Shown piece after piece: positions 9,868 to 43,641 of a stretch of 64,000 bases of DNA; within the stretch, counting starts at the first letter, position 1, and every line of letters starts with the position of its first letter. The position numbers were made by a program, and so were the translations under genes. Source of the DNA: a virus; the IMG/VR virus record IMGVR_UViG_3300047564_002155, positions 96,001-160,000 of that record; one strand, given 5' to 3'. Under the pieces are notes generated by a model. That model ran no database searches, was not told where the DNA came from, and saw only the letters and a program-made list of their open reading frames with translations.

Positions 9868-10167
9868 ATGGAACGATATACTGACATAGAAATTAGAAAA
9901 ACCTCAACAGGTAGAAGGTTTCGTAGGACTGTTCAATATCCTGTGATTGAACCATCATTTGAGGATACATACATCATTGGTATGGAATCGGACCGATTGG
10001 ATAATTTAGCTTGGAAATATTACAAAGATACATCCCTTTGGTGGATTATTGCAAGAGCAAATGGAATTGGTAAGGGTGACTTATCAGTTCCAGTTGGTTC
10101 CCAAATTCGTATTCCTGCAAATCCTTTGGATATCGTAACTAAATTTAACGAACTAAATAGTATATAA
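9868..10167 (+). CDS. LysM-like baseplate wedge protein (gp53-like)
   Basis: DRLDNLAWKYYKDTSLWWIIARANGI...VPVGSQIRIP. Confidence 0.8.
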   Translation: MERYTDIEIRKTSTGRRFRRTVQYPVIEPSFEDTYIIGMESDRLDNLAWKYYKDTSLWWIIARANGIGKGDLSVPVGSQIRIPANPLDIVTKFNELNSI

Positions 10168-10171
10168 AATT

Positions 10172-11944
10172 ATGGGAATTTTAACTCCTGGTGGTTTTGG
10201 AGCGGCCGGAACTCTGGCTGCAAGAGAAGGTTGGATTGCGGGTAATTCCGTTTCAGCTCGTGCTTTAGAGTGGTTACACCAACGAAGGGCATATGGTTCG
10301 GTTAGTTTTACAGGAGCTAATGATGGTTTTACTTGTAAAGCTAAAGCATATACTTTAACATTTGGAACGGGTGATGAAGCTGCTTTAAAAAGAGCCGGTA
10401 GATATGTTCCAAGACCACACTTAACTTCAATCACAACAAAAAACCAAGGTAGCGGTGATATTTCAGACATTGCTATGTGGGATATTTCATTTGAGTATGT
10501 AGTGTATTCAAGTGGTGACTTTAACGCAGCTACTGCTGCTTTTATGATTCCTGGCAACTTTGTAAATGTTAAATTTGGATGGACTAATGGGTTTGGTGAA
10601 GTTTCAATCAATGAAGCTGCCATTTATAACTTCGGGTGGACTTATAATTTAGATGGGTCTTGGACTTGTAATGCAAGTGCTTTGGCTAAAACGGCCATTG
10701 CAGGCGGTTTTATTATCAAACCATCAGCACAAGCACAAACTTCAAAAGACTCTGAAGGTGCTGAAACAAAGTATTACGGAGTAGGTGCAAAATTACAAGC
10801 AAAATGTGATGAAGCTTTGGGTTTGGGTAGAGATGAAAATGGTGCGGTGACGAATGATGGATTGGAAGAAGGTCAAGCACGAGCATCCGGTACTTATGGT
10901 GTAATTAAATTACAAAAAGAAGCTGGTGCTATGGATATGCTACTTTCGTTTGGTAGTGCAAACGAATTAGTTGTTTCATTTGTTCAACTAAAGTTATTGG
11001 TTTCTTTTTTAAACTCAACATCAATGGGTGATGCTGGAAAAATTGTATCAAACGAAGCAACCTTTTTAAACAATTATCTTTTAAAATCAGCCGACCCTGG
11101 AAAAATTCTAATGCCAGGTATTGGTGCTAATTATAAACAAACAGGTGGAACTGTAAATGATTTTAGTGCTATTGGTGGAACTTTTGGTAAAGTGGAAGAT
11201 ATTTGGATTTCAACAGGTTTAATAATTGAAGTTGAAAATAAATTATTAGAGCGTAAAAAAGAAGGTGAAGAGGCTTCTTATACAGTTCACCAATTTATGA
11301 GTCAAATATTAAAAGAGATAGAAACCGAAACGGGTTCCGTTGTGAACTGTTATTTACAATCAGACCCACAATCAAGTGGTATTAAAACCTACACCATAGT
11401 AAACCGACATAATGATATTGGTGGTGGAACTGGAGTTGGATACACATTCAAAACCCTTACACCAAATTCTATTATAAAAGGAATTAGTATGTCATCAAAC
11501 TTGGACGCTGAGATGTCTGCGATTGCATACACCGGCGGTGGTGGTAAGTATCCAAGTAATGCAATTAAGAATGTTTTTAATTGTACTCCAAAAAATCCAA
11601 ATGGTGCTGCTGGTGCTTTAGACAATACTAACCAAGCACTCAAAGAAAAAATTACGCAAATGGGTAATAACTATAACTCAAATGAAGTTTCTGATTTTAG
11701 AAAGGTTTTAAGAAAACACTTTATGAGTAAATTATTTCCATCTGCAAAAAGTATTCCATACGCAATTAACTTGAGCGTAACTTTTGATGGAGTAGATGGT
11801 ATTCAGTTTTTTAACACATTTACGGTAGATAATCTGCCAGGTGGTTTTGGTGATGTGTTTTTTGCAGTAGGTGAGATTGAGCATTCGGTTTCAAGTGGTA
11901 ATTGGGACACGACTATTGTTGGTTATATGATGATTAACACATAA
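10172..11944 (+). CDS. Probable baseplate hub protein
   Basis: 590 aa after the LysM gene. C-terminal LSVTFDGVDGIQFFNTFTVDNLP...FAVGEIEHSVSSGNWDTTI resembles hub (gp27/gpD-like) proteins. Confidence 0.55.
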   Translation: MGILTPGGFGAAGTLAAREGWIAGNSVSARALEWLHQRRAYGSVSFTGANDGFTCKAKAYTLTFGTGDEAALKRAGRYVPRPHLTSITTKNQGSGDISDIAMWDISFEYVVYSSGDFNAATAAFMIPGNFVNVKFGWTNGFGEVSINEAAIYNFGWTYNLDGSWTCNASALAKTAIAGGFIIKPSAQAQTSKDSEGAETKYYGVGAKLQAKCDEALGLGRDENGAVTNDGLEEGQARASGTYGVIKLQKEAGAMDMLLSFGSANELVVSFVQLKLLVSFLNSTSMGDAGKIVSNEATFLNNYLLKSADPGKILMPGIGANYKQTGGTVNDFSAIGGTFGKVEDIWISTGLIIEVENKLLERKKEGEEASYTVHQFMSQILKEIETETGSVVNCYLQSDPQSSGIKTYTIVNRHNDIGGGTGVGYTFKTLTPNSIIKGISMSSNLDAEMSAIAYTGGGGKYPSNAIKNVFNCTPKNPNGAAGALDNTNQALKEKITQMGNNYNSNEVSDFRKVLRKHFMSKLFPSAKSIPYAINLSVTFDGVDGIQFFNTFTVDNLPGGFGDVFFAVGEIEHSVSSGNWDTTIVGYMMINT

Positions 11945-11945
11945 G

Positions 11946-12515
11946 ATGAGTAGACAAAGAATATATTACCCAGAAGGAAAAATCCAAAAAGGATTATACA
12001 CCATCGGAAAACAATGGATGACCGAAGATGGTAAAGAGTATATTGGTGGGTATCATACCTACACCACCGGTGAAGTTTTTACTCAAGCATCTTATATCAA
12101 AGATGTATCAAAAAAACTCATACCATACAAAGATGTAAGTCAACAATCAGTAAAAGAAGTATTTGATTATGACGCTTTGCCAAAAAAGTCAAATCTAGCA
12201 GAACACTTTTTTCCAACTTACTCAAAAGCAACTCCAATTGAAAGTGATTACCTAAAAGGATTTGTAAAACGATACTATGTTAGAAGTATGTTGAATGGTA
12301 TCATTATGGAAACTTCTATAAGAGATTATAGTAAAGTTAGACCGGAAGTATTTGAAAAAACAACAATCACTTGGAAAATAACAGGTCCAATTAATGACTC
12401 CGGCTCCGAGCCCGGAATTGAAGACACGAACCGAAGATTGGTAAATTTGGCTGAAAGAGAAGTCAAAGGGATAACAAACTACATAACAAACTTTACCGAG
12501 TTCAGAAAGATTTAA
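11946..12515 (+). CDS. Hypothetical protein (last gene of the structural block)
   Basis: 189-aa ORF abutting the previous gene. Confidence 0.7.
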   Translation: MSRQRIYYPEGKIQKGLYTIGKQWMTEDGKEYIGGYHTYTTGEVFTQASYIKDVSKKLIPYKDVSQQSVKEVFDYDALPKKSNLAEHFFPTYSKATPIESDYLKGFVKRYYVRSMLNGIIMETSIRDYSKVRPEVFEKTTITWKITGPINDSGSEPGIEDTNRRLVNLAEREVKGITNYITNFTEFRKI

Positions 12516-12535
12516 CAATTTGATAACATTGAGGG

Positions 12536-12566
12536 CTTGTCAGTTCAAATAGTTTTCGTATCTTTG
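12536..12566 (+). promoter_or_regulatory. Bacteroidota-type primary sigma promoter (-33/-7)
   Basis: CTTG-N19-TATCTTTG; tandem TAACA repeats just upstream. Confidence 0.75.
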
Positions 12567-12585
12567 TTAAGTAAGTGATAAACAA

Positions 12586-12867
12586 ATGAAAACTATGAAT
12601 TACGCTGAACTGACCAAGATGTCTCTTGAAGACCTCCGTATGTTGAACAATCGTGTGGTTGAAGTCATCAAGATGAAACGCAAAGAATCTTCTTTGGAAA
12701 AGAAGTTTGAACTCCAAGTTGGAATGCAGGTAAAGGTCAACCACCCTAAACTGATGGGTATGAAGTTGGTAGTTAATGAAATTCGCCGAACCAAGGCGTC
12801 TCTTCGGGTGTTGGATGGTTTTGCTAGTTACAGCGTCCCCATCAATATGATTGAAGTTGTAAAATAA
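12586..12867 (+). CDS. Hypothetical early protein (SH3/KOW-like C-terminus)
   Basis: LQVGMQVKVNHP...VVNEIRRTKA pattern. Confidence 0.65.
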   Translation: MKTMNYAELTKMSLEDLRMLNNRVVEVIKMKRKESSLEKKFELQVGMQVKVNHPKLMGMKLVVNEIRRTKASLRVLDGFASYSVPINMIEVVK

Positions 12868-12873
12868 TTAGAT

Positions 12874-13092
12874 ATGGCTATTGTAAATAAACCCAAAACA
12901 CGAGGTATTGAGATTGACCTCACAGGTCCTCAAGGTAACGCATTCTTCCTTCTTGGAACCGCAAGTAATCTTGCTAAACAATTAGATTTGGATGGTAAAA
13001 AGATTGTAGAAGAAATGAAGAGTGGTAACTACGAAAACCTCCTTCAAGTCTTTGACCGACACTTTGGTTCATTCGTAACCCTTTACCGATAA
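12874..13092 (+). CDS. Conserved-type small phage protein
   Basis: IEIDLTGPQGNAFFLLG...MKSGNYENLL motif. Confidence 0.7.
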   Translation: MAIVNKPKTRGIEIDLTGPQGNAFFLLGTASNLAKQLDLDGKKIVEEMKSGNYENLLQVFDRHFGSFVTLYR

Positions 13093-13093
13093 T

Positions 13094-13456
13094 ATGGAAC
13101 TATCAGAACTTCAAGGTAAAATTGTTAAGGTGGTCGTGCCTGTTAAAGGTAAGTTGTTCTCAATGAATTTGAAAGTATGTCGTGTTAAAGCACGTTCAGT
13201 TCTATTCATTGAAGTAATTAAGCCAGAACGAAAGAACATATTTCGTAAAGCATCTATGAAAATGTTAGATTCGTTTAATGAATCAACAATCACATTCAAA
13301 GATAGCACTTTGCTTGATAAATGGGAATCTTCTTGGGATTCTATTGGTCAACTCACACCATCATACTCTCGCCAAGTTTTTAGTAAGCACTCAAGGGGGT
13401 GGGCGCCAAGACTACCATCAACAACAAACTCATCTGCTGGGTTTCCAATGGTTTAA
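13094..13456 (+). CDS. Hypothetical protein
   Basis: 120-aa ORF, tightly packed. Confidence 0.6.
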   Translation: MELSELQGKIVKVVVPVKGKLFSMNLKVCRVKARSVLFIEVIKPERKNIFRKASMKMLDSFNESTITFKDSTLLDKWESSWDSIGQLTPSYSRQVFSKHSRGWAPRLPSTTNSSAGFPMV

Positions 13457-13488
13457 TTTGGTGATATCAAAATAATTTCGTATATTTG
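13457..13488 (+). promoter_or_regulatory. Bacteroidota-type promoter
   Basis: TTTG-N20-TATATTTG; GTG start 4 nt downstream. Confidence 0.8.
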
Positions 13489-13492
13489 TAGT

Positions 13493-14716
13493 GTGAAAAT
13501 AGTAGACACGCAGGAAGAATTACATAAACATCTCTCTCAACTTTCCGAGAAGGTCGTGGTGTTCCCCATTCTATCAAGTTTGGAGAAACACCCACGGCTT
13601 TCTCGTATATCTGCTATTTTGATTTCTGATGGTGAATTGGATTTGTTTGTAAACTACCACAATATAGAAGCGTCTACAATTTCAGAAAAGATTGACTTTA
13701 ACCCATTCAAAGAGGTATGCGTAGTGGGTTTAAAAGACTTTCTACACCATTACGAGTTCTTACCTAATATGTACGACCTTGAGATGTCGTTATTCCATCA
13801 GGCGTCAAATTTTGAGGTAGATGAGAAACCAATCTATACGGTATTTCGTAGGAGAAAAGCTCCAAGAGGAAACGACCTTATCCCCATTTGGAAACACTAC
13901 GAACAATTTCAAGATTGGAAAAACTTGTGGTCTCAAAATGCGACCTCAAGTAAGTTTGCACAATTATATGTAAAAACATTAGTAAACCTGGAAAAATCAG
14001 GTCTTTATACGGATTCACATATAACGGAATATACACAATACAACACATTGACCACAACTTCAAGACCATCCAATACATTTGGTGGGGTCAACTATGCGGC
14101 TCTACCAAAAGATGGTGATGTTCGTAAGAGGTTCATATCACGATTTGAGGGGGGTAAATTGTATCAACTTGACTTTGATGGATACCACCCACGACTGATT
14201 GGTAAACTGATTGGGGTAGACATTCCATTGGATATAAAAGCACACCAATGGTTGGCTGACCAATATGGGGCAGATATCAAAGACGCAAAAGCTATTACCT
14301 TCCGGCAATTATATGGTGGGGTCCAAGATGAATACAAACATATTCCGTTTTTTAGTAAAACCGCAGAGTATATTGAGACCCTATGGCGTCAGTTTTTGGT
14401 AGATAGGGTAGTTTATACACCAATATTCAAACGAAAGATAGTTTTTTCTGATGATTTAAACAAAAATAAACTATTTAACTACATTCTGCAGTCCGTTGAG
14501 ACTGAAAGGAATATAATTATACTTGATAAATTGTCTAAACTAAAACCCCAGCACTCTTTACCAATACTTTACACATACGACTCAATTTTATTTGATATCC
14601 ACAAAGATGATATAAATTATATTAGTGAAGTAAAATCCATAATGGAAAATGATGGATTCCCTGTTGGTGTTGAAGTAGGTGACAACTATAAAGAAATGGT
14701 TACAACACATATTTGA
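13493..14716 (+). CDS. Atypical short family-A DNA polymerase-like protein
   Basis: TTTSRPSN...VRKRFISR, motif A QLDFDGYHPRL, motif B AKAITFRQLYGG, motif C LYTYDSILFD. Degenerate N-terminal exonuclease-like region. Confidence 0.85.
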   Translation: MKIVDTQEELHKHLSQLSEKVVVFPILSSLEKHPRLSRISAILISDGELDLFVNYHNIEASTISEKIDFNPFKEVCVVGLKDFLHHYEFLPNMYDLEMSLFHQASNFEVDEKPIYTVFRRRKAPRGNDLIPIWKHYEQFQDWKNLWSQNATSSKFAQLYVKTLVNLEKSGLYTDSHITEYTQYNTLTTTSRPSNTFGGVNYAALPKDGDVRKRFISRFEGGKLYQLDFDGYHPRLIGKLIGVDIPLDIKAHQWLADQYGADIKDAKAITFRQLYGGVQDEYKHIPFFSKTAEYIETLWRQFLVDRVVYTPIFKRKIVFSDDLNKNKLFNYILQSVETERNIIILDKLSKLKPQHSLPILYTYDSILFDIHKDDINYISEVKSIMENDGFPVGVEVGDNYKEMVTTHI

Positions 14717-14727
14717 TATTTATACTT

Positions 14728-16353
14728 ATGAAGAAACTCATTGAACGTATTTCCAAAAAATGGTGGAATGAAGTCGGATACGAACTTTACAACAATCCTT
14801 TAAGCGAAAGGTCTGTTGCGGGATTGTATTCAGTTCTATTAGAAGAGTTTGATGAGAAGAGAGCCAAAGAGTTAGTATTGGCTATTTTAGAGGGTGGAAG
14901 TCCAATCCCACCTAAAAAAGAAGAAGACCCTACTGAAAAGGAACTTGACCAATACGATATGTTAACTCAAGCCGAAAAAGATGAGTTAAAGAAAAAAGAA
15001 AAAGACCTTGATGAGGATAGTTGGGTAAAGAATAAAAAGTCGGGTAATGTCTACACGGTTAAAAAACCAAATCCCGAAACCCACGTTACACCAAGTAAGG
15101 GTGAAATTGAAAAGGCCGAAAAAGAAAAGCAAGATAAGCCAGAAGGTGAAGTAAAACCATTCTCATCAGCTACCGCAAAATCGGAACAAGCTAAATTAGC
15201 TAAAATTGATGAACTATTGGCTGGTCAAGATGATAATACTTTACAAAGAGCTGAAGTTCTAAAACAAAATTGGGACCAATTTGTAAATGCAAAAACTCGT
15301 GAAGAACGAGTTCAAGCGGTTCGTGAATTAGCTGACAATAACTTGATTGAAGGTCACGCTGGTGGTAAGAAAATCTATCTATCACCAAACTCAGCCCTAC
15401 CATACAAACACCTAACAGGTGCAAGTGGAACTTCGGTTAGTGAAGAAATGAACAAAATTATCCAAGAAGAGGGTATTGATGTTCCTATGAGGGGTGGTGC
15501 AAAAGACCGAGCGTTGGCTGATATGAGTGGTAAACACAATGAAGCTGGGGTGGTTGCATATCTATTCCCTTCAGATGAAAATAAAAAGGCATATCAATCT
15601 ACTCAAAACACATTGAAAGAATTGGGTGGTGATGAAGCCAAGTTTGACGCAATCAATAAAAAGGCAGCCGAGGTAATGAAATCATCTTTACCGGAGGGCT
15701 CACAAATTACAGGCGCTCAACAAGTCGGTGGTGTTGGTAAAAACGCATTGGCTCAATTAGGTATTGACCCTAAAGTTGACCCAACGGATTTGATTATTCA
15801 GTATAAAGATAAAGATGGAAACGACCAAATTATGAAAGTTTCTGCAAAAACCTATACTGACCCCAAAAATATCACAATGAAGAATTCTGGTGTTAATAAC
15901 GCAGGTGCTACTTATTTGGGTGATATTGGTAAAGACCTTGATGCAAAAGTTGGTGAGTTAAGAAAGAAATATGCTTGGAACGATTCTATGTCTGACCAAG
16001 AAAAAGCTGACCAAAAGAAAAATTTAAAGCAAGCATACCTTGGTGAGTTTTCTTCTAAAATGGAAGAATTGTCTAAAACCAGAGAAGGTCAACAAAAATT
16101 GACTGATATGTGGAAAGATGTTCACGGGTGTGGTAAAAATGTTCACACCCAAGTAATCAACAAAAAAACAGGTGATGTTCAAATGAAGTCGCCCGACCAT
16201 TATTGTAATCCAACTCCACCATTTGGAGTAAAATTTGATGGTGTTAAACTTGTAATCAATATGGGTGGTAAAGATGACTCATTCCTACAAGTAGATATGA
16301 AGACCGAGGATAAGGGCTCGCCCAAGATACTATTTAGACATAGAACAAAATAA
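14728..16353 (+). CDS. Late protein with a putative PD-(D/E)xK nuclease domain
   Basis: KHNEAGVVAYL ... KVDPTDLIIQY ... MKVSAKTY. Acidic/charged N-terminal region. The ATG lies 3 nt after TATTTATA. Confidence 0.5.
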   Translation: MKKLIERISKKWWNEVGYELYNNPLSERSVAGLYSVLLEEFDEKRAKELVLAILEGGSPIPPKKEEDPTEKELDQYDMLTQAEKDELKKKEKDLDEDSWVKNKKSGNVYTVKKPNPETHVTPSKGEIEKAEKEKQDKPEGEVKPFSSATAKSEQAKLAKIDELLAGQDDNTLQRAEVLKQNWDQFVNAKTREERVQAVRELADNNLIEGHAGGKKIYLSPNSALPYKHLTGASGTSVSEEMNKIIQEEGIDVPMRGGAKDRALADMSGKHNEAGVVAYLFPSDENKKAYQSTQNTLKELGGDEAKFDAINKKAAEVMKSSLPEGSQITGAQQVGGVGKNALAQLGIDPKVDPTDLIIQYKDKDGNDQIMKVSAKTYTDPKNITMKNSGVNNAGATYLGDIGKDLDAKVGELRKKYAWNDSMSDQEKADQKKNLKQAYLGEFSSKMEELSKTREGQQKLTDMWKDVHGCGKNVHTQVINKKTGDVQMKSPDHYCNPTPPFGVKFDGVKLVINMGGKDDSFLQVDMKTEDKGSPKILFRHRTK

Positions 16354-16367
16354 TTACGGAGAGATGA

Positions 16368-16757
16368 GTGAGAACCCAATTGTTATGTACCTTCACAAAC
16401 GAAGAATCATTTGAAAATATTGTAGACACTATTCTGAAAACCTATGAGTTATTCAGCAGAAAAATCTTTATCCTAAAATTAGAACCATCAAAAGAATTGG
16501 TAATTAGCTACAATATTATTCCAGCAACCGAAAACTCGTTCTTACCAAATACTATAATGGTTCACCGAAAAAAAGAGTCAAATACAATGTATACCATCAA
16601 TGCGTTAAATAGACTAATTTCAGACCTAAACAAAGGTGTGGTAGATAAGTCTTTTCAAGTTGATTGGGATATTTATAGAAACAGTGTGATACTCACCAAT
16701 GGTGATTCATACAAGGTTTTGAAAACAAGTTTGTTTCGCATCGTAGATGTAAAATAA
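16368..16757 (+). CDS. Hypothetical protein
   Basis: 129 aa, GGAG 6 nt upstream of GTG. Confidence 0.7.
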   Translation: MRTQLLCTFTNEESFENIVDTILKTYELFSRKIFILKLEPSKELVISYNIIPATENSFLPNTIMVHRKKESNTMYTINALNRLISDLNKGVVDKSFQVDWDIYRNSVILTNGDSYKVLKTSLFRIVDVK

Positions 16758-16780
16758 AAAATAAAAAATATTGGAATACA

Positions 16781-16812
16781 TTTGGAATTGTCAGCCAAAT
16801 GTTGTATATTAG
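16781..16812 (+). promoter_or_regulatory. Bacteroidota-type promoter
   Basis: TTTG-N20-TATATTAG upstream of SSB. Confidence 0.65.
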
Positions 16813-16851
16813 TGACAAGTTAATGTTTAACAATTAAAAAATGGTACAATT

Positions 16852-17619
16852 ATGGCTATTGATTTAAACGCAATCCGCAACCGTCTGAATTCTCTTCAGA
16901 CAAAAGTCCAAAAAACGGACAACCTTTGGAAGCCGACTCCCGGCAAACAACAAGTACGAATCCTTCCGTACATCCACAACCCCAATAACCCTTTTATTGA
17001 ACTTTACTTCCACTTTGATTTGGGTGGTAAGAATGTCATCTCTCCGATGTCGTTTGGTGAGGCTGACCCTATTGTAGAGTTTGCTGAAAAGTTGAAGGCA
17101 ACTGGCAATCGTGAGGATTGGAACCTTGCAAAACAACTCACCCCCAAGATGCGAACTTATGTTCCGGTATTGGTTCGTGGTGAAGAGTCTGAAGGTGTTA
17201 AGTTTTGGGGATTTGGTAAGCAAGTTTACCAAGAACTTCTTGGTTTCTTCGCTGACCCTGACTATGGTGATTTGACCGACCCTGTGAATGGTCGTGATGT
17301 TACGGTAGATTTCAAAACCGCAGCTGAAGTTGGTAAGTCTTACCCTGAAACTTCAATCCGTGTTAAACCAAACACAACCCCTATTTCGGAAGATAAGAAC
17401 ATCTTGGAATTGGCAAAAGACCAAATTGATTTGTCAACTATGTTCAAGCGTGTATCTTACGATGAAATGGAGTCTATGCTCCAACAATGGTTGGAAACTG
17501 GTAAAGTAGAAGATGGTCAAGCTGAAACTGCTGATGTTTCACAACCATCAACTCCGGCTCAAACAACCTCTAAAGCTTCTAATGTTAAAGAAGCGTTTGA
17601 TGACCTTTTCAACGACTAA
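16852..17619 (+). CDS. Single-stranded DNA-binding protein (gp32-like)
   Basis: WKP..GKQQVRILPY, GVKFWGFGKQVY, DLTDPVNGRD, acidic tail ending AFDDLFND. Confidence 0.85.
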   Translation: MAIDLNAIRNRLNSLQTKVQKTDNLWKPTPGKQQVRILPYIHNPNNPFIELYFHFDLGGKNVISPMSFGEADPIVEFAEKLKATGNREDWNLAKQLTPKMRTYVPVLVRGEESEGVKFWGFGKQVYQELLGFFADPDYGDLTDPVNGRDVTVDFKTAAEVGKSYPETSIRVKPNTTPISEDKNILELAKDQIDLSTMFKRVSYDEMESMLQQWLETGKVEDGQAETADVSQPSTPAQTTSKASNVKEAFDDLFND

Positions 17620-17622
17620 TTT

Positions 17623-18759
17623 ATGGCTAAAAAAGTAGAATCATCTCGTGATGAACTATCTTCAATTCTAGCTGCTAATCTCAACAAGAAGTTTAAGTCC
17701 GCCCACAAGGTGGCTTTCTTCTTGGATGGGTCAGAACAAACCCCTACCGATTTGGATGAGTGGGTTTCAACTGGCTCACCGATGTTAGACCTCGCCATTG
17801 CAAACCGACCCCACGGCGGTTTGCCGGTGGGTCGCATTACCGAGATTACGGGCTTGGAAGGAAGTGGTAAATCACTACTCGCAGCTCACGCTATTGCAGA
17901 TACTCAAAAGAAGGGTGGACTTGGTGTTTATATTGACACCGAGAACGCACTGAACCAAGAGTTTCTTGAGGCGATTGGAGTTGACATCAAAAAGATGTTG
18001 TATGTTCCATTGGAAACCGTGGAAGACATCTTTGAAGCAATTGATTCTATCATTGAATCAGTCCGTGCCGCCGATGGTGAAAAGAAGAAATTGGTAACTA
18101 TTGTAGTTGACTCCGTTGCCGGGGCTTCTACAAAAGTTGAAATTTCTGCTGACTACGACCAAGCTGGATACGCAACTCAAAAAGCTATTATTATTTCTAA
18201 AGCGATGAGAAAGGTCACGAACTTGATTGGTCGTGAACGAATCTCTCTAATCTTTACAAACCAACTTCGTACTCGTTTGGGTGTATCTTTTGGTGACCCT
18301 TGGACAACAAGTGGTGGTAAGGCAATCGCATTCCACTCATCGTGTCGTATCCGACTCAAACAAATGGGTCAGTTGAAAGCAAAGGTTGGTGGTGTAGACC
18401 AAGTAGTAGGTATTAAGACTCGTGCTCAAGTGATTAAAAATCGTATGGGTCCACCTCTCCGTTCTATTGATTACGATATCTACTTTGATAGTGGTATTGA
18501 CAATTATGGTTCGTGGTTGGAAATGATGAAGACCTACAAACTTGTAAATCAGACAGGCGCTTGGTATACCTATGTAGATACTGAAACTGGCGAAGAAATT
18601 AAGTTCCAAGCCAAGAACTTTGAAGAAATGATGGAGTCACGACCAGAACTGAAAGAGTCAATCTATCAGAAAATTTGTGATACTTACATTATGTCTTACA
18701 AAGAGTCAAGTGCTGAATCAAACATTGATAATATTGAAGTAACCGATTTTGATGATTAG
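17623..18759 (+). CDS. recA: RecA/UvsX recombinase
   Basis: Walker A GLEGSGKS, YIDTENA, IVVDSVA, IFTNQLR, TTSGGKAIAFHSS, IKNRMGPP. Confidence 0.95.
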   Translation: MAKKVESSRDELSSILAANLNKKFKSAHKVAFFLDGSEQTPTDLDEWVSTGSPMLDLAIANRPHGGLPVGRITEITGLEGSGKSLLAAHAIADTQKKGGLGVYIDTENALNQEFLEAIGVDIKKMLYVPLETVEDIFEAIDSIIESVRAADGEKKKLVTIVVDSVAGASTKVEISADYDQAGYATQKAIIISKAMRKVTNLIGRERISLIFTNQLRTRLGVSFGDPWTTSGGKAIAFHSSCRIRLKQMGQLKAKVGGVDQVVGIKTRAQVIKNRMGPPLRSIDYDIYFDSGIDNYGSWLEMMKTYKLVNQTGAWYTYVDTETGEEIKFQAKNFEEMMESRPELKESIYQKICDTYIMSYKESSAESNIDNIEVTDFDD

Positions 18760-19798
18760 TAAATACGCAGAACTCCTTAAAGAAGTTAAGAAAGAACATT
18801 TAGAGGTTAAAGATGAACACCTAAATGATAGAGTGCTTATTGTAGATGGGCTGAATCAGTTTATTCGTGTCTTTGGGGCAGTTCCTGCGTTAAATGACGA
18901 TGGTGAACACTGTGGTGGTATAACAGGTTTCTTGTTATCCACCGCAGCCTCCATCCGAACTCTTAAACCAACTCGTGTAGTTGTTGTATTTGATGGTAAG
19001 GGTGGTTCCCAGCGTAGAAAATCAAAATATAGTGGTTATAAAGAGGGTCGTACTGGTCTTACCAAAATCAACCGATTGGCTGGTTATGAAGACTTGGAAG
19101 ACCAACAACAATCAATGCGATATCAGTTCTCACGACTGATTGAATACCTACAAGTATTGCCGGTATCATTAACATATATTGACCACGTTGAAGCGGATGA
19201 TATCATTGCATATCTTGCAAATCATTATTTCCAAAAAGAAGTAGTAATTGTATCATCCGATAAGGATTTTCTTCAATTGGTAAATCCACGAATTAAAGTG
19301 TGGTCTTCTAATAAAAAGAAAATGTATGATGAGTCATTAGTTAGACAAGAATATGGTGTAATACCACAAAATCTTGTATTTTATCGTGTTCTAACCGGAG
19401 ACGCTTCTGATAATATCAAAGGTGTTAAAGGTGTTGGTGATAAAACCATAGAGTCTAAAATGTCATTCTTAAATAATGGTGAATTAGAGTTAGATGAGTT
19501 TATAAACGAATGTTCTAATGTAGATGAAAAGTTATCAAAAAAATTGATGGATAACATAGATGTTATACGAATGAACTTTGACCTTATGCAGCTACGAGAC
19601 CCTGAAATTGCATCATCTATAAAATCTAATGTTAGAGCCATTATGGATAATGGGACCAATCAATTGGATATGATTGAGTTTAAGAAAATGTTTATGGGTG
19701 ATAAATTATATACCGCTTTTGCTGATGTTGATTCTTGGTTAAGAAATTCTTTTCTAAATTTAGATACCCTCATTAAGAAGCATTTAAATGGTAAATGA
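18752..19798 (+). CDS. 5'-3' exonuclease / flap endonuclease (T4 RNase H / Pol I N-terminal type)
   Basis: LIVDGLN, VVFDGKG, YKEGR, EADDIIA, SSDKDFLQL, LTGDASDNIKGVKGVGDKT. Confidence 0.93.
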   Translation: MISKYAELLKEVKKEHLEVKDEHLNDRVLIVDGLNQFIRVFGAVPALNDDGEHCGGITGFLLSTAASIRTLKPTRVVVVFDGKGGSQRRKSKYSGYKEGRTGLTKINRLAGYEDLEDQQQSMRYQFSRLIEYLQVLPVSLTYIDHVEADDIIAYLANHYFQKEVVIVSSDKDFLQLVNPRIKVWSSNKKKMYDESLVRQEYGVIPQNLVFYRVLTGDASDNIKGVKGVGDKTIESKMSFLNNGELELDEFINECSNVDEKLSKKLMDNIDVIRMNFDLMQLRDPEIASSIKSNVRAIMDNGTNQLDMIEFKKMFMGDKLYTAFADVDSWLRNSFLNLDTLIKKHLNGK

Positions 19799-20330
19799 TT
19801 TTGATACACGAGTTTGGTATGGGTCAATACAATACGGACCATTCTCCGCTACTAATTGGTTTTCAATTGGTGGTGTAGAACACCCATTATTTAAAACTCT
19901 AATATCAAGGATAAAATCTGAAGTATCGGAAGTATATAACTTTGAGTTATACACTATGGGTGGTATTTTAGAAGATTGGATGAGCTGGGATGTTGACTTT
20001 GCTTTAATAGGTGAATACAAACCAGAACTAATTAAAAAGTGTTTTGAGGGTATTGTTGGTATAGCGTTTGATTTACATTTGTATGTGGATTTACAATATC
20101 AAGAAAAATTATGGCGAATTGATGAATTCTCAAAAACAGGTCAACTAAACGAAATACACGAAAACTACGAATTATCAAACTATTTTGTAAGAGATGGTCA
20201 GATTGAAGACCTCAGCCACTATCAATTGGTTGATGGAATCTACAAGCGTAATGTAATATATCCATTTCCAAAACACATTGAAAAATATGCAGAAGGTTAT
20301 GTTTATAAATCACCACTTCGTTTGGTTTAA
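19788..20330 (+). CDS. Putative nucleotidyltransferase-fold protein
   Basis: LYTMGGILEDWMSWDVDFAL ... YVDLQY matches the hG[GS]x9-13DhD...D pattern of the Pol-beta NTase superfamily. Confidence 0.45.
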   Translation: MVNDFDTRVWYGSIQYGPFSATNWFSIGGVEHPLFKTLISRIKSEVSEVYNFELYTMGGILEDWMSWDVDFALIGEYKPELIKKCFEGIVGIAFDLHLYVDLQYQEKLWRIDEFSKTGQLNEIHENYELSNYFVRDGQIEDLSHYQLVDGIYKRNVIYPFPKHIEKYAEGYVYKSPLRLV

Positions 20331-20332
20331 GA

Positions 20333-20364
20333 TTTGGATAATTCAAAATAAAGTCGTATATTAG
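20333..20364 (+). promoter_or_regulatory. Bacteroidota-type promoter
   Basis: TTTG-N20-TATATTAG; ATG 5 nt downstream. Confidence 0.7.
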
Positions 20365-20369
20365 TGTCT

Positions 20370-21728
20370 ATGGAAAAATTCGGAAGTAAATACGGAACCT
20401 CGTTCCAAAATAAAATTATATCGGCGCTGTTAGGTGATAGGAGTTTTTCTCGCCAAGTATTTGACATCCTAAAACCAGAATACTTTGATTCAGAATCATC
20501 GGAGTGGCTGGTTCGTGAGGTTATGTCTTATGTTGAAGAATACGAAAAACTACCAACGCTGGATGTGTTGAAAGTCCGAATCAATACCATAGATAGGGAT
20601 GTTCTAAAAACAACTGTTGTAGACACACTTAAATTTGCGTGGAATCACCTTGAAAGTGATGACTTGGAGTATGTTAAAGAACAAACCCTTGACTTTTGTA
20701 AAAATCAATGTATTAAGAATGCTATCCTTGATTCCGTAGAGTTATTAGAACAAGGTAAGTATGAAGTGATTAAAAAGAAAGTTGATGATGCTATGAAAGC
20801 AGGTCAAGATTCTGATTTAGGTCACGAATACAAAACTATGATTACTGAACGATACGAAGATTCTATCAGAAATGTAGTATCAACGGGATGGCAGGTTATT
20901 GATGAAATTACGCAAGGTGGTTTTGGAAAAGGTGAGTTGGTTTTATTTGCCGCCCCTCCTGGCATCGGTAAGTCGTGGTCTTTAGTTAACATCGGCGTGG
21001 CGGCTATGAAATTAGGTAAGACTGTGGCTCACTACACCCTTGAATTAAATGAAGGGTATGTAGGACAAAGATACGATGCTGTTTTGAGTAAGATTGCAGT
21101 TGCAAATCTGAAATACAATATGGAAGATGTTAAAAAATCAGTTACGAGTGTAAAAGGAGACCTGATTGTAAAACATTACCCAACCAAAACCGCCAGCGTG
21201 ACTTCATTGAAAGCCCATATGGATAAGATGATTTTACAAGGTAAAAAACCTGATGTTGTAATAGTGGACTACGCTGACCTACTTCGTGGACCATCAAATA
21301 AGGAACGACACGAAGAATTAGAGACTATTTTTGAAGACTTGAGGGGTATGGCTGGTGAGTATGAAGTCCCTATCTATACAGCATCTCAAATCAATCGTAG
21401 TGGAGCAGAAGATGACATTATTACAGGCACAAAAATCGCAGGTTCATTCTCCAAAATGATGACTGCTGACTTTGTAGTATCCCTTTCTCGTAAGATTGAA
21501 GACAAACTTGCTGGGACAGGAAGATGGCACGTTATTAAGAATCGTTTTGGTCCTGATGGTATGACTTTCCCATCAAAAGCTAACTTCTCTACGGGCGAAA
21601 TTTCCATCTATAATGAAGATTCCATTTCTGGTCAACAAACCAAAAAAGAGATGAAAGGTGGGGAGAGTTTAGTAAGAAAAGAACTTGCTCAAAAATATAA
21701 AGAAATGAAGGGTGAAATAGATTTTTAA
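20370..21728 (+). CDS. Replicative DnaB-like helicase (gp41-like)
   Basis: Walker A APPGIGKS, YTLEL, VIVDYADLL, TASQINR, IKNRFGPDG. Confidence 0.93.
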   Translation: MEKFGSKYGTSFQNKIISALLGDRSFSRQVFDILKPEYFDSESSEWLVREVMSYVEEYEKLPTLDVLKVRINTIDRDVLKTTVVDTLKFAWNHLESDDLEYVKEQTLDFCKNQCIKNAILDSVELLEQGKYEVIKKKVDDAMKAGQDSDLGHEYKTMITERYEDSIRNVVSTGWQVIDEITQGGFGKGELVLFAAPPGIGKSWSLVNIGVAAMKLGKTVAHYTLELNEGYVGQRYDAVLSKIAVANLKYNMEDVKKSVTSVKGDLIVKHYPTKTASVTSLKAHMDKMILQGKKPDVVIVDYADLLRGPSNKERHEELETIFEDLRGMAGEYEVPIYTASQINRSGAEDDIITGTKIAGSFSKMMTADFVVSLSRKIEDKLAGTGRWHVIKNRFGPDGMTFPSKANFSTGEISIYNEDSISGQQTKKEMKGGESLVRKELAQKYKEMKGEIDF

Positions 21729-21785
21729 CTACTATGTATATTCACCCACACCAAAATATGTCTAACAATTTAACGGAGAAATCGC

Positions 21786-24883: not shown

Positions 24884-24893
24884 AGATATAAAA

Positions 24894-26455: not shown

Positions 26456-26670
26456 TAACATTTAGAATGTCGTTACGAGGAGAATCACACCCACAACATA
26501 AACTAACGGAAGACCAAGTAAAATCTATTCGTAAGTTGTGGGCTATTGGGCATAGAAACATTCGTGTTCTTGCACGAAACAATGGCGTATCATCCGCTAA
26601 CATTCGTAAGATTGTAAAAGGTGAAACTTGGACTCATATTCTTTTTGGTGAATTCAATGACTACCAATGA
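26452..26670 (+). CDS. Small helix-turn-helix protein (homing-endonuclease-type DNA-binding domain, standalone)
   Basis: GESHPQHKLTEDQVKSIR...LARNNGVSSANIRKIVKGETWTH. Confidence 0.7.
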   Translation: MITFRMSLRGESHPQHKLTEDQVKSIRKLWAIGHRNIRVLARNNGVSSANIRKIVKGETWTHILFGEFNDYQ

Positions 26671-28233: not shown

Positions 28234-28264
28234 TTTGGCAGTTCAAAAATATTTCGTATATTTG
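28234..28264 (+). promoter_or_regulatory. Bacteroidota-type promoter
   Basis: TTTG-N19-TATATTTG. Confidence 0.8.
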
Positions 28265-30632: not shown

Positions 30633-31751
30633 ATGAGAGTTTTAGTTATACCAAATTACACCAACTTTGGGGCTGTTAAAGACATCAATAGGGATTCGTT
30701 CCTATTGGTGTTCAAGTCCTTTTTAGATAATACGCAAATTGGTAAAGAGTGGGAGTGGATTCTACCTTATCCTGATTTAGATAATCATCCTGGTATCATC
30801 AACGCATTTGAATACCCGAATGTTCAGTTGGTAAAAATGGATGGATTGGATTCATTTCCACCCAAAATGAGGGTAGATTATCCTCACAAGTTTTTCAATA
30901 GAATCATTGAAAAATACAAAGGTGAATTCAATTTGATTTGGAGTCATTTGCCTGAATGGACTAATGAGTTTAAAGTAACTCGTATCTATAATAAAACTCA
31001 ACCTATTATTGGATATTGTCATTGGTGGGAAATCAAAGATAATGGTGCAAGAGATGATAATTCATTTTGGCGTAATGTCAAGGGTATGTTAGAAATGAAA
31101 GTGTGTGGTGTAAACTCACAATGGGTAAAAGATTTAGTAATCAAACGAGCATCTGAATCATTTCAACCACATATCATTGAGCAATTAGAACAAATTATTC
31201 AACCTTGGTATCTTGGATGTGATTCCGCAACTCCAACATCTACATACGAACCTAAAACTATTTTGTATAATCATAGATGGGGTGTGTATACGGGTTCGGA
31301 ATTCTTTTTTGAGGTAATGGATGAATTATGGAAAACTCGTAAAGATTTCCAAGTGTGGACTACCTTAAAAGAAATGGGTAAACCATATACCAAATATATT
31401 GGTCACGCTGATAGAGATGTATATATGAATCAAATGTCAAAAGCACATTTTGGTGTAGGTACGTTCCAAGGATATTCCGCTTGGTCTATGTCAGCAACTG
31501 ATGGTTTATCTCGTGGAGTTCCATATTTACTACCAAATGATTTTTGTTATCCTGAAATGGTAGGCACTGATTACCCTTTACTTTATAATGGTAAAGAAGA
31601 ATTTAAACAAATGGTTGTAAAACTATTGGATGGTGATATTGAACGACCTGATGTAACTCATATTGCAGAATCCTTGCTTTGGGAACACCAACTAAAAAGT
31701 TGGAATGTAGAAGAAAACTTTGTTAATACCGCACGAAAAGATTTTAATTAA
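30633..31751 (+). CDS. GT-B fold glycosyltransferase adjacent to DNA polymerase
   Basis: IWSHLPE, ILYNHR, WSMSATDGLSRGVPYLLP...YPEM (GT4-like acceptor/donor motifs). Confidence 0.75.
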   Translation: MRVLVIPNYTNFGAVKDINRDSFLLVFKSFLDNTQIGKEWEWILPYPDLDNHPGIINAFEYPNVQLVKMDGLDSFPPKMRVDYPHKFFNRIIEKYKGEFNLIWSHLPEWTNEFKVTRIYNKTQPIIGYCHWWEIKDNGARDDNSFWRNVKGMLEMKVCGVNSQWVKDLVIKRASESFQPHIIEQLEQIIQPWYLGCDSATPTSTYEPKTILYNHRWGVYTGSEFFFEVMDELWKTRKDFQVWTTLKEMGKPYTKYIGHADRDVYMNQMSKAHFGVGTFQGYSAWSMSATDGLSRGVPYLLPNDFCYPEMVGTDYPLLYNGKEEFKQMVVKLLDGDIERPDVTHIAESLLWEHQLKSWNVEENFVNTARKDFN

Positions 31752-34270
31752 TGTATCAAAATGTATACTATGAAAAGGAAAATGGTATCATCCATTGCTG
31801 GGATGACCAAAAAGGTTATTTTACAAGCAAGTACCGTAGATACGCATATGTTAGAGATGGGAATGGTTCTTTTACTTCTATTCACGGAGAGCGTCTTAAA
31901 AAGATAAACTTTTGGAAGCAAGAGGATAATCTTAAACTTTACGAAAGTGATGTAAACGAAATGACTCGTTTTCTGATTGACCAATATGGTGATTCAGATG
32001 AGGTATCTACCGGTCATACTATTCTAACCTTTGATATTGAGGTTGAGATGAATAGTGGTTTGCCGGACATTGATAAAGCAGGTAACGCAATCACTTCAAT
32101 TGCAGGTCACGATTCAGTCACCAACGACTATTTCGTATATGTTGTATCGGACAATTATGTTGACAAAACCATCAAAGGAGCTCAAGTTCGTTCGTTTAAA
32201 ACTGAAGCTGACCTACTTGAATCATTTCTAAACAAATGGCAAGAAATCAACCCAACAATCGTTACGGGTTGGAACATTGACTACTTTGATATTACTTACC
32301 TATACAATCGTTTAAAGAATGTGTTGGGTGAGAGAATGGCTAGTAAACTTTCTCCTATTGGTAAGATTGGATACAACAAATATCGTAATCGTTATATTAT
32401 CGCGGGTGTAAGTTGTTTGGACTACCTTGCTCTTTACAAGAACTTTACCTACCAAGAATTCCCTAACTACCGATTGGATACCATTGCTAATATCGTATTG
32501 GGTAGGGGTAAAATTGAATACAAGGGTAATCTTGACCAATTGTTCCGAGATGATTTGGAAAAGTTCATTGAGTATAACTTGGTGGATGTGGAGTTGGTTG
32601 TTGAAATGGATAGAAAACTTCAGTTCATTGAATTGGCTCAAGCGATTTGTCACGCAGGGCACGTATTTTATGAAGATTTCCTATTCTCATCAAAGTGGTT
32701 GGAAGGTGCTATCCTAACTTTCTTGCGTAGAAGTAATCGTGTAGCGCCAGACAAACCACGAAGAGCGGAAAAGAACGAAGATGGGTCTGATGGTGAGGGT
32801 AAGTTCACAGGTGCATATGTAAAAGAACCCAAACCCGGTCTTTACAAGTGGGTATATGACTTGGACTTGACTTCGCTGTATCCATCTATTATTATGACCT
32901 TGAATGTGTCGCCAGAAACAAAGATTGGTAAACTCAAATCATTCTCTTCGGAAGATTATATGAAGAACAAGATTGAGTCGTATTCAATCGTGGATGATAA
33001 TGGTCGTGAGTTTCCACCGCTAACTCGTGATGAATTTCAAAATCTAATCACGGAATCCAATTATTCAGTATCATCAAATGGTGTATTGTACACGCAAGAT
33101 AGGGTTGGTGTAATACCTGAAATCTTGAATGTTTGGTTTGACAAGCGAGTTGAGTATAAGGACTTAATGAAAAAATATGGTAAAGAGGGTAATAACGAAC
33201 TTTACAAGTTTTACTCTCAACGCCAGTTGGTTCAAAAAATTATGTTGAACTCCCTTTATGGTGTATTGGGTCTACCATCATTCCGATTCTATGATGTGGA
33301 TAACGCAGAAGCTACCACAATTACGGGTCAAACTGTAATCAAGACCACGGAGATGATTGCTAACCAATACTACAAAAGTATCATTGGTAAAGAGGATGAC
33401 TACAATGTATATACCGATACTGACTCCGTATTCTATCAGGCGGCTCCGCTTGTAAAAGCAAGAAACCCACAAATTGATGTGGAGTCTGATGAACAAATGG
33501 TTCCAGCGATTCTATCAGTTGCTCAAGAGGTTCAAGCCCACATCAATAAGGTCTACGACACGATGTCTAAAAAGTTATTCAATGTGGACTTTCACCGATT
33601 TGATATCAAACAAGAAACCATCGCAAAAGGTGGATTTTGGGTATCAAAGAAGAGATACGCACAATGGATTATCAACGACAATACTGTTCCTTGTGATAAG
33701 ATGGATGTTAAGGGATTGGATGTTCGTAGGTCATCATTCCCAACCTACTTTAAGAAGGTGATGGAGACTGTTTTGTTGGATATTCTAAAAGGTGTTGATA
33801 AATCTATAATTGATGATAAACTTATCAAATTCAAAGAAGAGATGTCAGACCAAAACTTTACGGATATTGCAAAGAACTCTGCTGTGAAGGATATGTCCAA
33901 GTATGTAAAGAATCGTAAGGAGTACGCATTGGGTGAATTTGAGAAAGGAACCCCAGCGCACGTTAAAGCTGCTATAACCTATAATAGGTTGTTGAAACAT
34001 TATAACGCTCCTTACAAATATGAACCTATGAAGGATGGTGATAAGATTAAGTGGGTTTACTTAAAAAAGAATCCACTTGGATTGGAAGCTACCGCATTCA
34101 CAGGTCATAACGACCCCCCACAAATCAATCAGTTTATTCAACAATACATTGATGTGGACTTGATTTGGGAAAAGGAGTTGGAGAACAAAATCACCGACTT
34201 CTATGACGCAATGAATTGGGACAAACCAAATCCCAATCTTCTAAAAGCATCGCAATTTTTTGGATTTTGA
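31751..34270 (+). CDS. Family-B replicative DNA polymerase (gp43-like)
   Basis: Exo FDIE, TGWNIDYFD, YNLVD; pol DLDLTSLYPS, KIMLNSLYG, YTDTDS, KKRY. Confidence 0.97.
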   Translation: MYQNVYYEKENGIIHCWDDQKGYFTSKYRRYAYVRDGNGSFTSIHGERLKKINFWKQEDNLKLYESDVNEMTRFLIDQYGDSDEVSTGHTILTFDIEVEMNSGLPDIDKAGNAITSIAGHDSVTNDYFVYVVSDNYVDKTIKGAQVRSFKTEADLLESFLNKWQEINPTIVTGWNIDYFDITYLYNRLKNVLGERMASKLSPIGKIGYNKYRNRYIIAGVSCLDYLALYKNFTYQEFPNYRLDTIANIVLGRGKIEYKGNLDQLFRDDLEKFIEYNLVDVELVVEMDRKLQFIELAQAICHAGHVFYEDFLFSSKWLEGAILTFLRRSNRVAPDKPRRAEKNEDGSDGEGKFTGAYVKEPKPGLYKWVYDLDLTSLYPSIIMTLNVSPETKIGKLKSFSSEDYMKNKIESYSIVDDNGREFPPLTRDEFQNLITESNYSVSSNGVLYTQDRVGVIPEILNVWFDKRVEYKDLMKKYGKEGNNELYKFYSQRQLVQKIMLNSLYGVLGLPSFRFYDVDNAEATTITGQTVIKTTEMIANQYYKSIIGKEDDYNVYTDTDSVFYQAAPLVKARNPQIDVESDEQMVPAILSVAQEVQAHINKVYDTMSKKLFNVDFHRFDIKQETIAKGGFWVSKKRYAQWIINDNTVPCDKMDVKGLDVRRSSFPTYFKKVMETVLLDILKGVDKSIIDDKLIKFKEEMSDQNFTDIAKNSAVKDMSKYVKNRKEYALGEFEKGTPAHVKAAITYNRLLKHYNAPYKYEPMKDGDKIKWVYLKKNPLGLEATAFTGHNDPPQINQFIQQYIDVDLIWEKELENKITDFYDAMNWDKPNPNLLKASQFFGF

Positions 34271-34302
34271 TTTGGATAATTAAAATTAATTTAGTATATT
34301 TG
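34271..34302 (+). promoter_or_regulatory. Bacteroidota-type promoter
   Basis: TTTG-N20-TATATTTG; ATG 4 nt downstream. Confidence 0.8.
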
Positions 34303-35144: not shown

Positions 35145-35166
35145 TCTAAACTAAAAATTAAAAAGT

Positions 35167-35868
35167 ATGAAGAAAAGTTCATTTGAGGGATTTGTCTCTC
35201 GTTATAATCTTGGCGGTGAAGTTGAATCCGTTAAGGTAGTCTCAACTGATGAAGGACTTTCGGTTCGTTTCATCTCTGATGACAAAACCCTTTTGGGTGT
35301 TGTAGAAAGTGAAGATAAGTCATTCCCTAATGGTGAATTTGGTATCTACACTACTTCACAACTAAAAGGTTTGTTGGGTGTTCTTGACGCAAGTGTTGAT
35401 GTAAAATCTAATGAAACTTCATTGGTATTTTCAGACACTAAAACTTCGGTAAACTATGTGTTGGCTGAATTGTCAGTAATTCCAGCAGTTCCAGAACTCA
35501 AGCAACTCCCCAACTTTAATGCTACCATCACTTTGGATGAAGCATTCATTGGGACATTTATCAAATCAAAAGGTGCTTTGAGTGATTCGGATACCTTTAC
35601 CTTTACTTGTACTGGTGAATCAAACGCAGGTAAGATTGTTTTGGGTTATTCTAAAATCAACTCTAACCGAATCTCTATCAATGTAGATTGTGTTTGTGAA
35701 AGTGATGTTCAACCCATTTCATTCTCTGCTAAATACTTGAAGGAAATCTTGAATGCAAATCGTGGTGCTAAAGCATCTTCTATGAAGGTCTCATCACAAG
35801 GTCTTGCTTCAGTTTCTTTTGAACACGAAGGATACAAATCATCTTACTACCTCGTAGAAGTAAAGTAA
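35167..35868 (+). CDS. Sliding clamp (gp45/PCNA-like)
   Basis: 233 aa, EFGIY..SQL..LL, FSAKYLKEIL, KVSSQGL...F......YYLV; located near the clamp loader. Confidence 0.8.
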   Translation: MKKSSFEGFVSRYNLGGEVESVKVVSTDEGLSVRFISDDKTLLGVVESEDKSFPNGEFGIYTTSQLKGLLGVLDASVDVKSNETSLVFSDTKTSVNYVLAELSVIPAVPELKQLPNFNATITLDEAFIGTFIKSKGALSDSDTFTFTCTGESNAGKIVLGYSKINSNRISINVDCVCESDVQPISFSAKYLKEILNANRGAKASSMKVSSQGLASVSFEHEGYKSSYYLVEVK

Positions 35869-43608: not shown

Positions 43609-43641
43609 CCAACTTTAATACTTATACCAAAGAGTTACGAT

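Follow-up and report, generated by a model that had tools for sequence, protein, structure and literature searches.

Introduction

The divPolA1 group of family-A DNA polymerases was described by Yutin et al. 2024 (PMC11348598), with a founding protein from Flavobacterium phage immuto, and was listed for 14 genomes. According to that paper, the catalytic palm residues are conserved, the thumb is truncated and all three catalytic Asp residues of the exonuclease are replaced throughout the family; replication genes are conserved downstream of divPolA1, and the same genomes also encode a "regular" polymerase of family A, B or C. The paper makes no mention of the steric gate, ribonucleotides or priming for divPolA1. 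In the PolA reclassification of Czernecki et al. 2023, the gate position (A2) is among the highly conserved motif positions in 19 clusters or subfamilies, none of which is described as a thumbless enzyme of ~400 amino acids. Here we analyze a 64,000-nucleotide stretch of viral DNA, hereafter the window, comprising bases 96001-160000 of the 168,128-bp IMG/VR virus record IMGVR_UViG_3300047564_002155 (94% complete). In it, an initial annotation had noted a gene for a second, minimal family-A polymerase beside a complete family-B (PolB) replisome.

We find that this gene is an especially reduced member of the published, biochemically uncharacterised divPolA1 family, and we suggest that its product is probably an accessory DNA polymerase. 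To the published description our analysis adds a family-wide quantification of the nucleotide-pocket signature, a far larger metagenomic family and the constant co-occurrence of a DnaG-type primase. Few natural family-A polymerases are as small as the divPolA1 enzymes, which, judging by metagenome numbers, are common in large aquatic phages; the enzymes also offer a possible compact scaffold for polymerase engineering. They present a puzzle as well: why should a phage lineage already equipped with a full T4-type replisome retain a second polymerase, one lacking a thumb, as the leading gene of its recombination module?

The polymerase gene and its family

The gene lies as follows, in window coordinates, which are used throughout unless a genome position is given:

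13493..14716, + strand, divPolA1-type minimal family-A DNA polymerase gene, 407 amino acids

Its GTG start is the first start codon following an in-frame stop at 13454. A protein library clustered at 90% identity holds 2337 relatives of the polymerase, many of them on contigs of 160-176 kb; at 50% identity the family falls into 1103 clusters, and in IMG/VR at least 594 contigs carry a member. Such numbers show that the open reading frame (ORF) is no chance occurrence but a genuine gene, on which constraint is strong. A megablast search of positions 10000-22000 of the window against a phage collection gave no match.

A described relative is the immuto protein, with which BLASTP found 39% identity over 230 amino acids of palm and fingers (E = 7e-40); the tblastn match in the immuto genome is annotated as "DNA polymerase family A". 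The immuto divPolA1 has the same DFDGYH.R and YTYD[S/A] motifs, a truncated thumb and a dead exonuclease. Its genome, like that of the phage studied here, is ~170 kb long and also encodes a regular polymerase, and the genes downstream, for a single-stranded DNA-binding protein (SSB), a recombinase, a 5'-3' exonuclease, DnaB and ribonucleotide reductase (RNR), are those found in the window. Because of this homology, together with the matching palm, thumb, exonuclease and gene context, the window protein is placed in divPolA1 by sequence comparison. It is more reduced than divPolA1 at large, with 407 amino acids against a family median of 443, and it belongs to the most reduced clade of the family.

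Relationship to family-A polymerases

A Pfam search with the window protein returned only noise, the cut-off of DNA_pol_A (PF00476) not being reached, and a six-frame search of the whole genome with PF00476 gave no match either. PHROGs yielded a single weak match to "DNA polymerase" (E = 1.8e-4), and the only match of phmmer against PDB sequences was to motif C of the Klenow fragment, at E = 0.44. The Pfam model was reached by 46 of 70 family representatives, with no other family matched, and the immuto homologue also reaches it, unlike the window protein. Since the Pfam model is silent on the window protein itself, its membership in family A rests on a family profile and on structure. The profile was taken from an alignment of 127 diverse homologues with a mean column identity of ~31% (alignment A2), which is also the source of the residue counts given below. 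Its match to Klenow has E = 6.7e-12, with motif A free of gaps from the catalytic Asp to the His, and the TGR, A, B, 6 and C motifs are present in the Klenow order.

A structure model from 28 close homologues was poor, with a predicted local distance difference test (pLDDT) score of 60.5, so the diverse alignment was needed; with it, the AlphaFold model reached a pLDDT of 96.5 and a predicted template modelling score of 0.93. The model matches Mycobacterium smegmatis Pol1, the Bst large fragment and KlenTaq with Z scores of 27-28 over 340-387 of its 407 residues, and Klenow with a Z score of 23.5 and a root-mean-square deviation of 2.8 A over 393 residues. Across eleven DNA PolA representatives the Z scores were 20-25 over 368-394 residues, and the top 50 Foldseek matches were all DNA polymerases. 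Judged by this model, the window protein is a compact, Klenow-fold family-A polymerase in which palm and fingers are intact, and the second polymerase of the initial annotation is thereby upheld.

In the model, the likeness to the Bst large fragment, KlenTaq and M. smegmatis Pol1 runs from a vestigial exonuclease domain through to the C-terminus, and these enzymes likewise have inactive proofreading. The window protein shares with bacterial Pol I large fragments the catalytic Asp pair, the Lys, Phe and Tyr of the O-helix, the Arg of the TGR motif and the Asn and Gln of helix Q. It differs from them in being ~170-190 residues shorter and essentially thumbless, in the changes of the gate Glu to His, of R754 to Ile or Tyr and of HDE to YDS, and in an extra invariant Glu (E336). 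Moreover, the flap nuclease is a separate gene in this phage.

The single-subunit RNA polymerases are much more distant. The yeast mitochondrial, T7 and N4 enzymes matched the model with Z scores of 13.5, 12.2 and 9.2, respectively, and only ~233 residues aligned (Z 9-13.5 for the T7-type enzymes). A core of palm and fingers is common to both groups, as is a Ser after the motif C Asp, but the promoter-binding N-terminal domain and specificity loop of T7 RNA polymerase presumably have no counterpart in the window protein. That the model resembles RNA polymerases far less than DNA polymerases argues against RNA synthesis by this protein.

Exonuclease domain and thumb

The N-terminal part of the protein contains the remains of two elements:

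13493..13990, + strand, N-terminal DnaQ/RNase D-like 3'-5' exonuclease fold (residues 1-~165), predicted inactive
14003..14041, + strand, thumb remnant (residues 171-183), short beta strands, placed by anchor spacing and the model

Residues 1-~165 of the model match the DEDD folds of RNase D, Rrp6, WRN exonuclease and the epsilon subunit with Z scores of 8-11.7. In the Exo I strand, VVVFPILSS, the expected Asp-x-Glu is missing and no residue is acidic, and the domain is predicted to be a catalytically dead remnant. At the thumb, which is reduced to a short hairpin, the conserved E-x-x-G and Y-x-x-Y-N anchors are separated by 14 residues in the window protein and by a median of 28 in the family; the corresponding site in Klenow holds ~110 residues, as estimated from the profile alignment. 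Only short strands are seen at this site in the AlphaFold model.

The nucleotide pocket

The motifs of the active site, with their Klenow equivalents, are as follows:

14051..14074, + strand, TGR motif TTTSRPSN; R191 = R668 (Arg in 127 of 127)
14171..14194, + strand, motif A, DFDGYHPR; D227 = D705 (catalytic), Y231 = I709, H232 = E710 (steric gate)
14288..14317, + strand, motif B or O-helix, KAITFRQLYG; K266 = K758, F270 = F762, Y274 = Y766
14468..14506, + strand, helix Q region, KLFNYILQSVETE; N329 = N845, Q333 = Q849
14570..14596, + strand, motif C, YTYDSILFD; Y362 = H881, D363 = D882 (catalytic), S364 = E883

Translation of the window confirmed the motif A, B and C strings at these positions, including the altered DFDGYHPR and YDS that the initial annotation had pointed out, and the alignment bears out its further observation of a His at the steric gate with both catalytic Asp residues kept. 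Additional Klenow equivalences are R211 = R682 and H251 = H734, and I262, four residues upstream of K266, stands at R754.

Among the 127 relatives, the gate position 232 is His in 126 and Phe in one, and the preceding position 231 is Tyr in 92 and Phe in 28. Position 262 is occupied by Tyr (77), Ile (22), Val (8), Leu (6) or Arg (5), and a basic residue at either 262 or 263 (R754/R755) is found in 33 of the 127, including the window protein with its K263. In motif C, Tyr at 362 and Asp at 363 are universal, and position 364 is Ser in 109, Ala in 16 and Gly in two. R191, D227, K266 and D363 are invariant; F270 (123/127), Y274 (125/127), N329 (122/127) and Q333 (126/127) are nearly so. The minor-groove- and dNTP-sensing residues of Pol I that are kept are thus the equivalents of R668, R682, K758, F762, Y766, N845 and Q849, and we take Q333 to preserve the Gln of DNA polymerases at a position where T7 RNA polymerase has His784. 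E336, on helix Q at the position of Klenow A852, is family-specific and is Glu in all 127. Outside the metagenomic set, three records show the same pocket signature: the immuto protein (DFDGYHLR, YTYDA), a Microcystis phage Mel-JY01 protein and a 484-kb uncultured phage. The nucleotide pocket has thus been rebuilt throughout the family and defines divPolA1, and it is His in place of the gate Glu that sets the family apart from other family-A polymerases.

The replaced Glu gate, together with three other pocket changes, poses a concrete question of sugar selectivity. In polymerases of families B and Y, as in reverse transcriptases, a Tyr or Phe guards the 2' position, and Taq Ile614, the equivalent of Klenow I709, lines the sugar pocket. 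By analogy, we read the aromatic pair Tyr231-His232 as a replacement steric gate and not as an opened one. Glu336, one helical turn past Gln333, may orient the gate His or pair with it.

The initial annotation had gone from the altered pocket to relaxed sugar selection and a primase-like role. In such a scheme, loss of the Glu gate would admit ribonucleoside triphosphates (rNTPs), and the enzyme would synthesise primers of RNA or of mixed composition, or else initiate chains de novo in the manner of CcPol-MP. It is true that none of the 127 family members keeps the Glu of E710, 126 of them having His instead, and that the Klenow E710A mutant loses discrimination against rNTPs, according to Astatke 1998 as reported in PMC10201439. 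We nevertheless consider relaxed selection unlikely. A His is bulky, and RNA polymerases of this fold, such as that of T7, have Gly at the gate; the residue before the His, being Tyr or Phe in 120 of 127, adds further bulk. The residues that read the minor groove of the primer-template, R191, N329 and Q333 (R668, N845 and Q849), are retained, and the fold is that of DNA PolA. Nor is the Ser of motif C specific to RNA polymerases, since HDS also occurs in an ordinary phage DNA PolA: the 705-amino-acid enzyme of Roseobacter phage CRP-3 reads VHDS and has a Glu gate.

A different consequence of the same changes would be that the protein has become a catalytically weak or inactive scaffold, which keeps the fold but whose contribution to the replisome or to the apparatus of recombination is mainly structural. 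None of the Klenow residues R754, H881 and E883 has been kept, and there is no thumb to grip DNA. On the other side stand the metal-binding Asp pair, the O-helix Lys, Phe and Tyr and the TGR Arg, all invariant or nearly invariant in the 127 relatives; because these catalytic residues have hardly varied despite the low mean column identity, they point to selection for catalysis, and we regard a scaffold as very unlikely.

Gene order around the polymerase

Downstream of the polymerase, the window encodes a run of replication and recombination genes:

16368..16757, + strand, 129-amino-acid protein of unknown family (74 of 80 related loci)
16852..17619, + strand, gp32-like single-stranded DNA-binding protein (phrog_1192, E = 3e-20; syntenic in 64 of 80 loci)
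17623..18759, + strand, UvsX/RecA-like recombinase (phrog_97, E = 3.1e-73)
18749..19798, + strand, 5'-3' flap exonuclease of the FEN or T4 RNase H type (PF02739, E = 2.3e-32; PF01367, E = 3.2e-10)
20364..21728, + strand, DnaB-like replicative helicase (phrog_19, E = 1e-81; PF03796)

The order in 80 related viral loci is g590, g189, polymerase, a variable insert, g129 (the 129-amino-acid protein), gp32-like SSB, UvsX, flap nuclease, DnaB-like helicase and RNR, and both immuto and Mel-JY01 have this order. The slot between the polymerase and the 129-amino-acid protein genes measures from 0 to ~7 kb in relatives. In the window, it is filled by an ORF of 546 amino acids (14713-16353). The ORF begins with a TTG overlapping the stop codon of the polymerase gene, has a long Lys/Glu-rich stretch and gave no match in Pfam, PHROGs or PDB sequences and no informative Atlas match. 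Because this ORF is present in only 9 of the 80 loci, we regard it as an occupant of a variable insertion slot.

The gene for the 129-amino-acid protein always lies directly upstream of the gp32-like SSB gene. The protein begins M-x-T-Q-L-L-C-T-F and has invariant L5, F9, N49, R67, Y75, N78, N81 and W100 in its family alignment (A3); it gave no Pfam, PHROG, PDB-sequence or informative Atlas match, and no OB-fold was detected by sequence. Its gene sits where we take T4 to have the helicase loader gene 59, a correspondence of position with no similarity shown. A complex prediction for the polymerase (alignment A2) and this protein (alignment A3) gave no answer (score 0.00) and speaks neither for nor against binding.

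Replisome and primase

The regular polymerase of this phage belongs to family B, and its gene adjoins those of its accessory factors:

31751..34270, + strand, family-B DNA polymerase with exonuclease domain (phrog_262, E = 1.6e-191; PF00136, PF03104)
35167..35868, + strand, sliding-clamp-like processivity factor (phrog_223, E = 8.9e-10)
37052-37966, + strand, clamp loader large subunit (phrog_168, E = 4e-81)
38140-38688, + strand, clamp loader small subunit (phrog_225, E = 7.1e-23)

The gp45 clamp model of Pfam (PF09116) finds no match in the genome, although PHROGs identifies the processivity factor. With the helicase and SSB listed above, these genes make up the complete PolB replisome that had been noted beside the second polymerase.

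In a set of 21 related records, PolB was detected in 9, and only one of the records longer than 60 kb lacked it; the records without it are fragments of 19-29% completeness and one contig of 176 kb and 92% completeness (G004). In G004, itself from a divPolA1 phage, the Pfam models detect no PolA, PolB or PolC. We considered whether divPolA1 might be the sole polymerase of G004 and rejected this, as the contig ends ~1 kb past the Mom genes, where PolB lies in the genome of the window; probably no polymerase was detected because the contig stops before the expected PolB position. We likewise rejected the idea that contigs of ~45 kb are small phages with divPolA1 alone, their CheckV completeness being 19-29%.

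Another way to read the presence of two polymerases is that divPolA1 is the main replicative enzyme and that the swappable regular polymerase of family A, B or C does something else. Yutin et al. 2024 (PMC11348598) remark that the surroundings of the divPolA1 gene are better conserved, and look more like a replication locus, than those of the regular polymerases, and in our set divPolA1 heads the helicase-SSB module in 80 of 80 loci. An enzyme with neither proofreading nor thumb would, however, be a poor fit for copying a genome of ~170 kb; no clamp-binding extension was found, the C-terminus being an ordinary PolA ending, and it is the PolB gene that adjoins the genes for clamp and clamp loader. 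We consider it highly improbable that divPolA1 is the main replicase.

The initial annotation had also remarked on the absence of a primase. This holds for the window, which contains no DnaG-type primase, but not for the genome, which has one at G000:C1:45089-46024 (phrog_47, E = 4.7e-33, with weak matches to DNAG_N and Toprim_2). Each of the three relatives with a completeness of at least 90% has an orthologue of it, as does one relative that is 73% complete. The primase gene stands in a row with those for an endonuclease I (PF05367, E = 4.6e-56) and a Mre11/Rad50-like nuclease-ATPase, at G000:C1:44201-47428, ~50 kb upstream of the window.

The primase bears directly on whether divPolA1 itself could start chains. 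PolA-derived primases that are paired with a small downstream protein do exist (PMC7581432; bioRxiv 10.1101/2022.12.02.518924). In CcPol-MP, from SCCmec and Firmicutes elements (Bebel et al. 2020, PMC7581432; Rice 2022 preprint), the gene of a truncated PolA with eroded N-terminal domains precedes that of a small protein and has a helicase gene close by, a likeness to the present locus that we draw by description. In the most compact relatives, the conserved gene for the 129-amino-acid protein directly follows that of the polymerase, and the absent thumb could leave space for an initiating nucleotide. However, CcPol itself retains E710 and F762, and the phage studied here and all its near-complete relatives have a DnaG-type primase of their own. 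The initial interpretation is therefore partly supported: the second polymerase and its conserved, altered gate are real, and the proposed relaxed selectivity and primase-like role are not supported.

Role of the polymerase

Our preferred explanation starts from the observed fold, motifs, conservation, family membership and gene context of the protein and from its co-occurrence with PolB and a primase. From these, we infer its activity, its preference for dNTPs, its distributive behaviour and its role: it is probably a primer-extending, non-proofreading, distributive accessory DNA polymerase. It would extend a primer on a DNA template with dNTPs, and would do so without proofreading, the catalytic residues of the exonuclease having been lost. 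Because the thumb is also lost and the grip on the duplex should be weak, low intrinsic processivity and short tracts are to be expected, unless a partner supplies processivity. A candidate job is short-patch gap filling after primer removal by the flap nuclease, which would amount to a Pol I split into separate genes; an alternative candidate is DNA synthesis during UvsX-driven recombination. PolB with its clamp and clamp loader would replicate the bulk of the genome, and the DnaG-type primase would make the primers. An accessory role is the simplest one, because the phage has its own primase and a clamp-loaded PolB.

Several points weigh against this explanation. The equivalents of E710, R754, H881 and E883 are all changed, and activity, substrate or rate could differ substantially from those of Pol I. 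The role is read from the gene neighbourhood alone, and the idea of a Tyr231-His232 gate comes from analogy with the aromatic gates of other families and not from coordinates. T4-type phages carry out Okazaki maturation without such an enzyme. We found no later paper that uses the name divPolA1, and no assay of any member. Finally, Yutin et al. 2024 (PMC11348598) note that the regular polymerase of these phages is exchanged for one of another family (A, B or C), whereas divPolA1 is kept, and this constancy means that divPolA1 is possibly more central in replication than an accessory role would imply.

A bolder proposal is that the rebuilt pocket grants a substrate range unique among natural family-A polymerases, which might take in ribonucleotides, sugar- or base-modified nucleotides or the extension of RNA primers. 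We hold this to be doubtful. If true, thumbless enzymes of 400 amino acids would run a dedicated step, be it primer extension, hand-off or synthesis with unusual nucleotides, in aquatic phages of a group that is both very large and abundant.

Possible DNA modification

Around PolB lies a dense set of probable DNA-modification and anti-defence genes (24873-28206, 34510-37055 and 41788-46337):

24873-25892, glutamine-synthetase-like protein
26667-27428, 27412-28206 and 34510-35121, three Mom-family proteins
35868-37055, DruA-domain protein
41788-43608, Nol-like carbamoyltransferase
43642-46337, two glycosyltransferases

Between the glutamine-synthetase-like and Mom genes sits a gene for a 188-amino-acid protein (25889-26455) with weak PHROG matches to 2OG-Fe(II) oxygenase and endonuclease V (E ~3e-7). 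By its annotated content, this gene set suggests that the phage DNA is hypermodified.

The polymerase might then be specialised for modified DNA, its rebuilt pocket serving to copy hypermodified bases or to build with them. The three Mom-family genes, the glutamine-synthetase-like and carbamoyltransferase genes and the two glycosyltransferase genes around PolB fit such a function; family-A polymerases dedicated to non-canonical bases are known, examples being DpoZ and those found in phages with T-modified genomes; and the loss of proofreading and thumb is typical of lesion-tolerant polymerases. Nevertheless, the altered residues surround the sugar and triphosphate and not the base edge, and the polymerase gene is grouped with recombination and replication genes instead of modification genes. 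Mom genes occur in 6 of 9 related records, but G005, a divPolA1 phage of 100% completeness, has none, so that the polymerase is not bound to the Mom modification. Specialisation for modified DNA is, in our view, rather unlikely.

Promoter-like elements

The polymerase gene is preceded by a copy of a repeated element:

13457..13488, + strand, promoter-like element TTTG-N20-TATATTTG, Bacteroidota-type -33/-7, ending 4 nt before the GTG

The element reads approximately TTTGG(A/T)TAATT-AAAA-TTTCGTATATTTG and fits the Bacteroidota pattern of -33 TTTG and -7 TAnnTTTG. The window contains 13 matches to TTTG-N17-21-TAnnTTTG, with 3.7 expected, and none of 100 shuffles reached 13. Copies of the element lie at 13457-13488, 28234-28264, 28790-28820, 34271-34302, 35113-35144 and 39776-39807, near-identical ones preceding other replication and modification genes. 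As two of the copies end only 4-6 nt before start codons (13493 and 39813), the sequence hints at leaderless mRNAs, or mRNAs with a very short leader, and at a Bacteroidota host.

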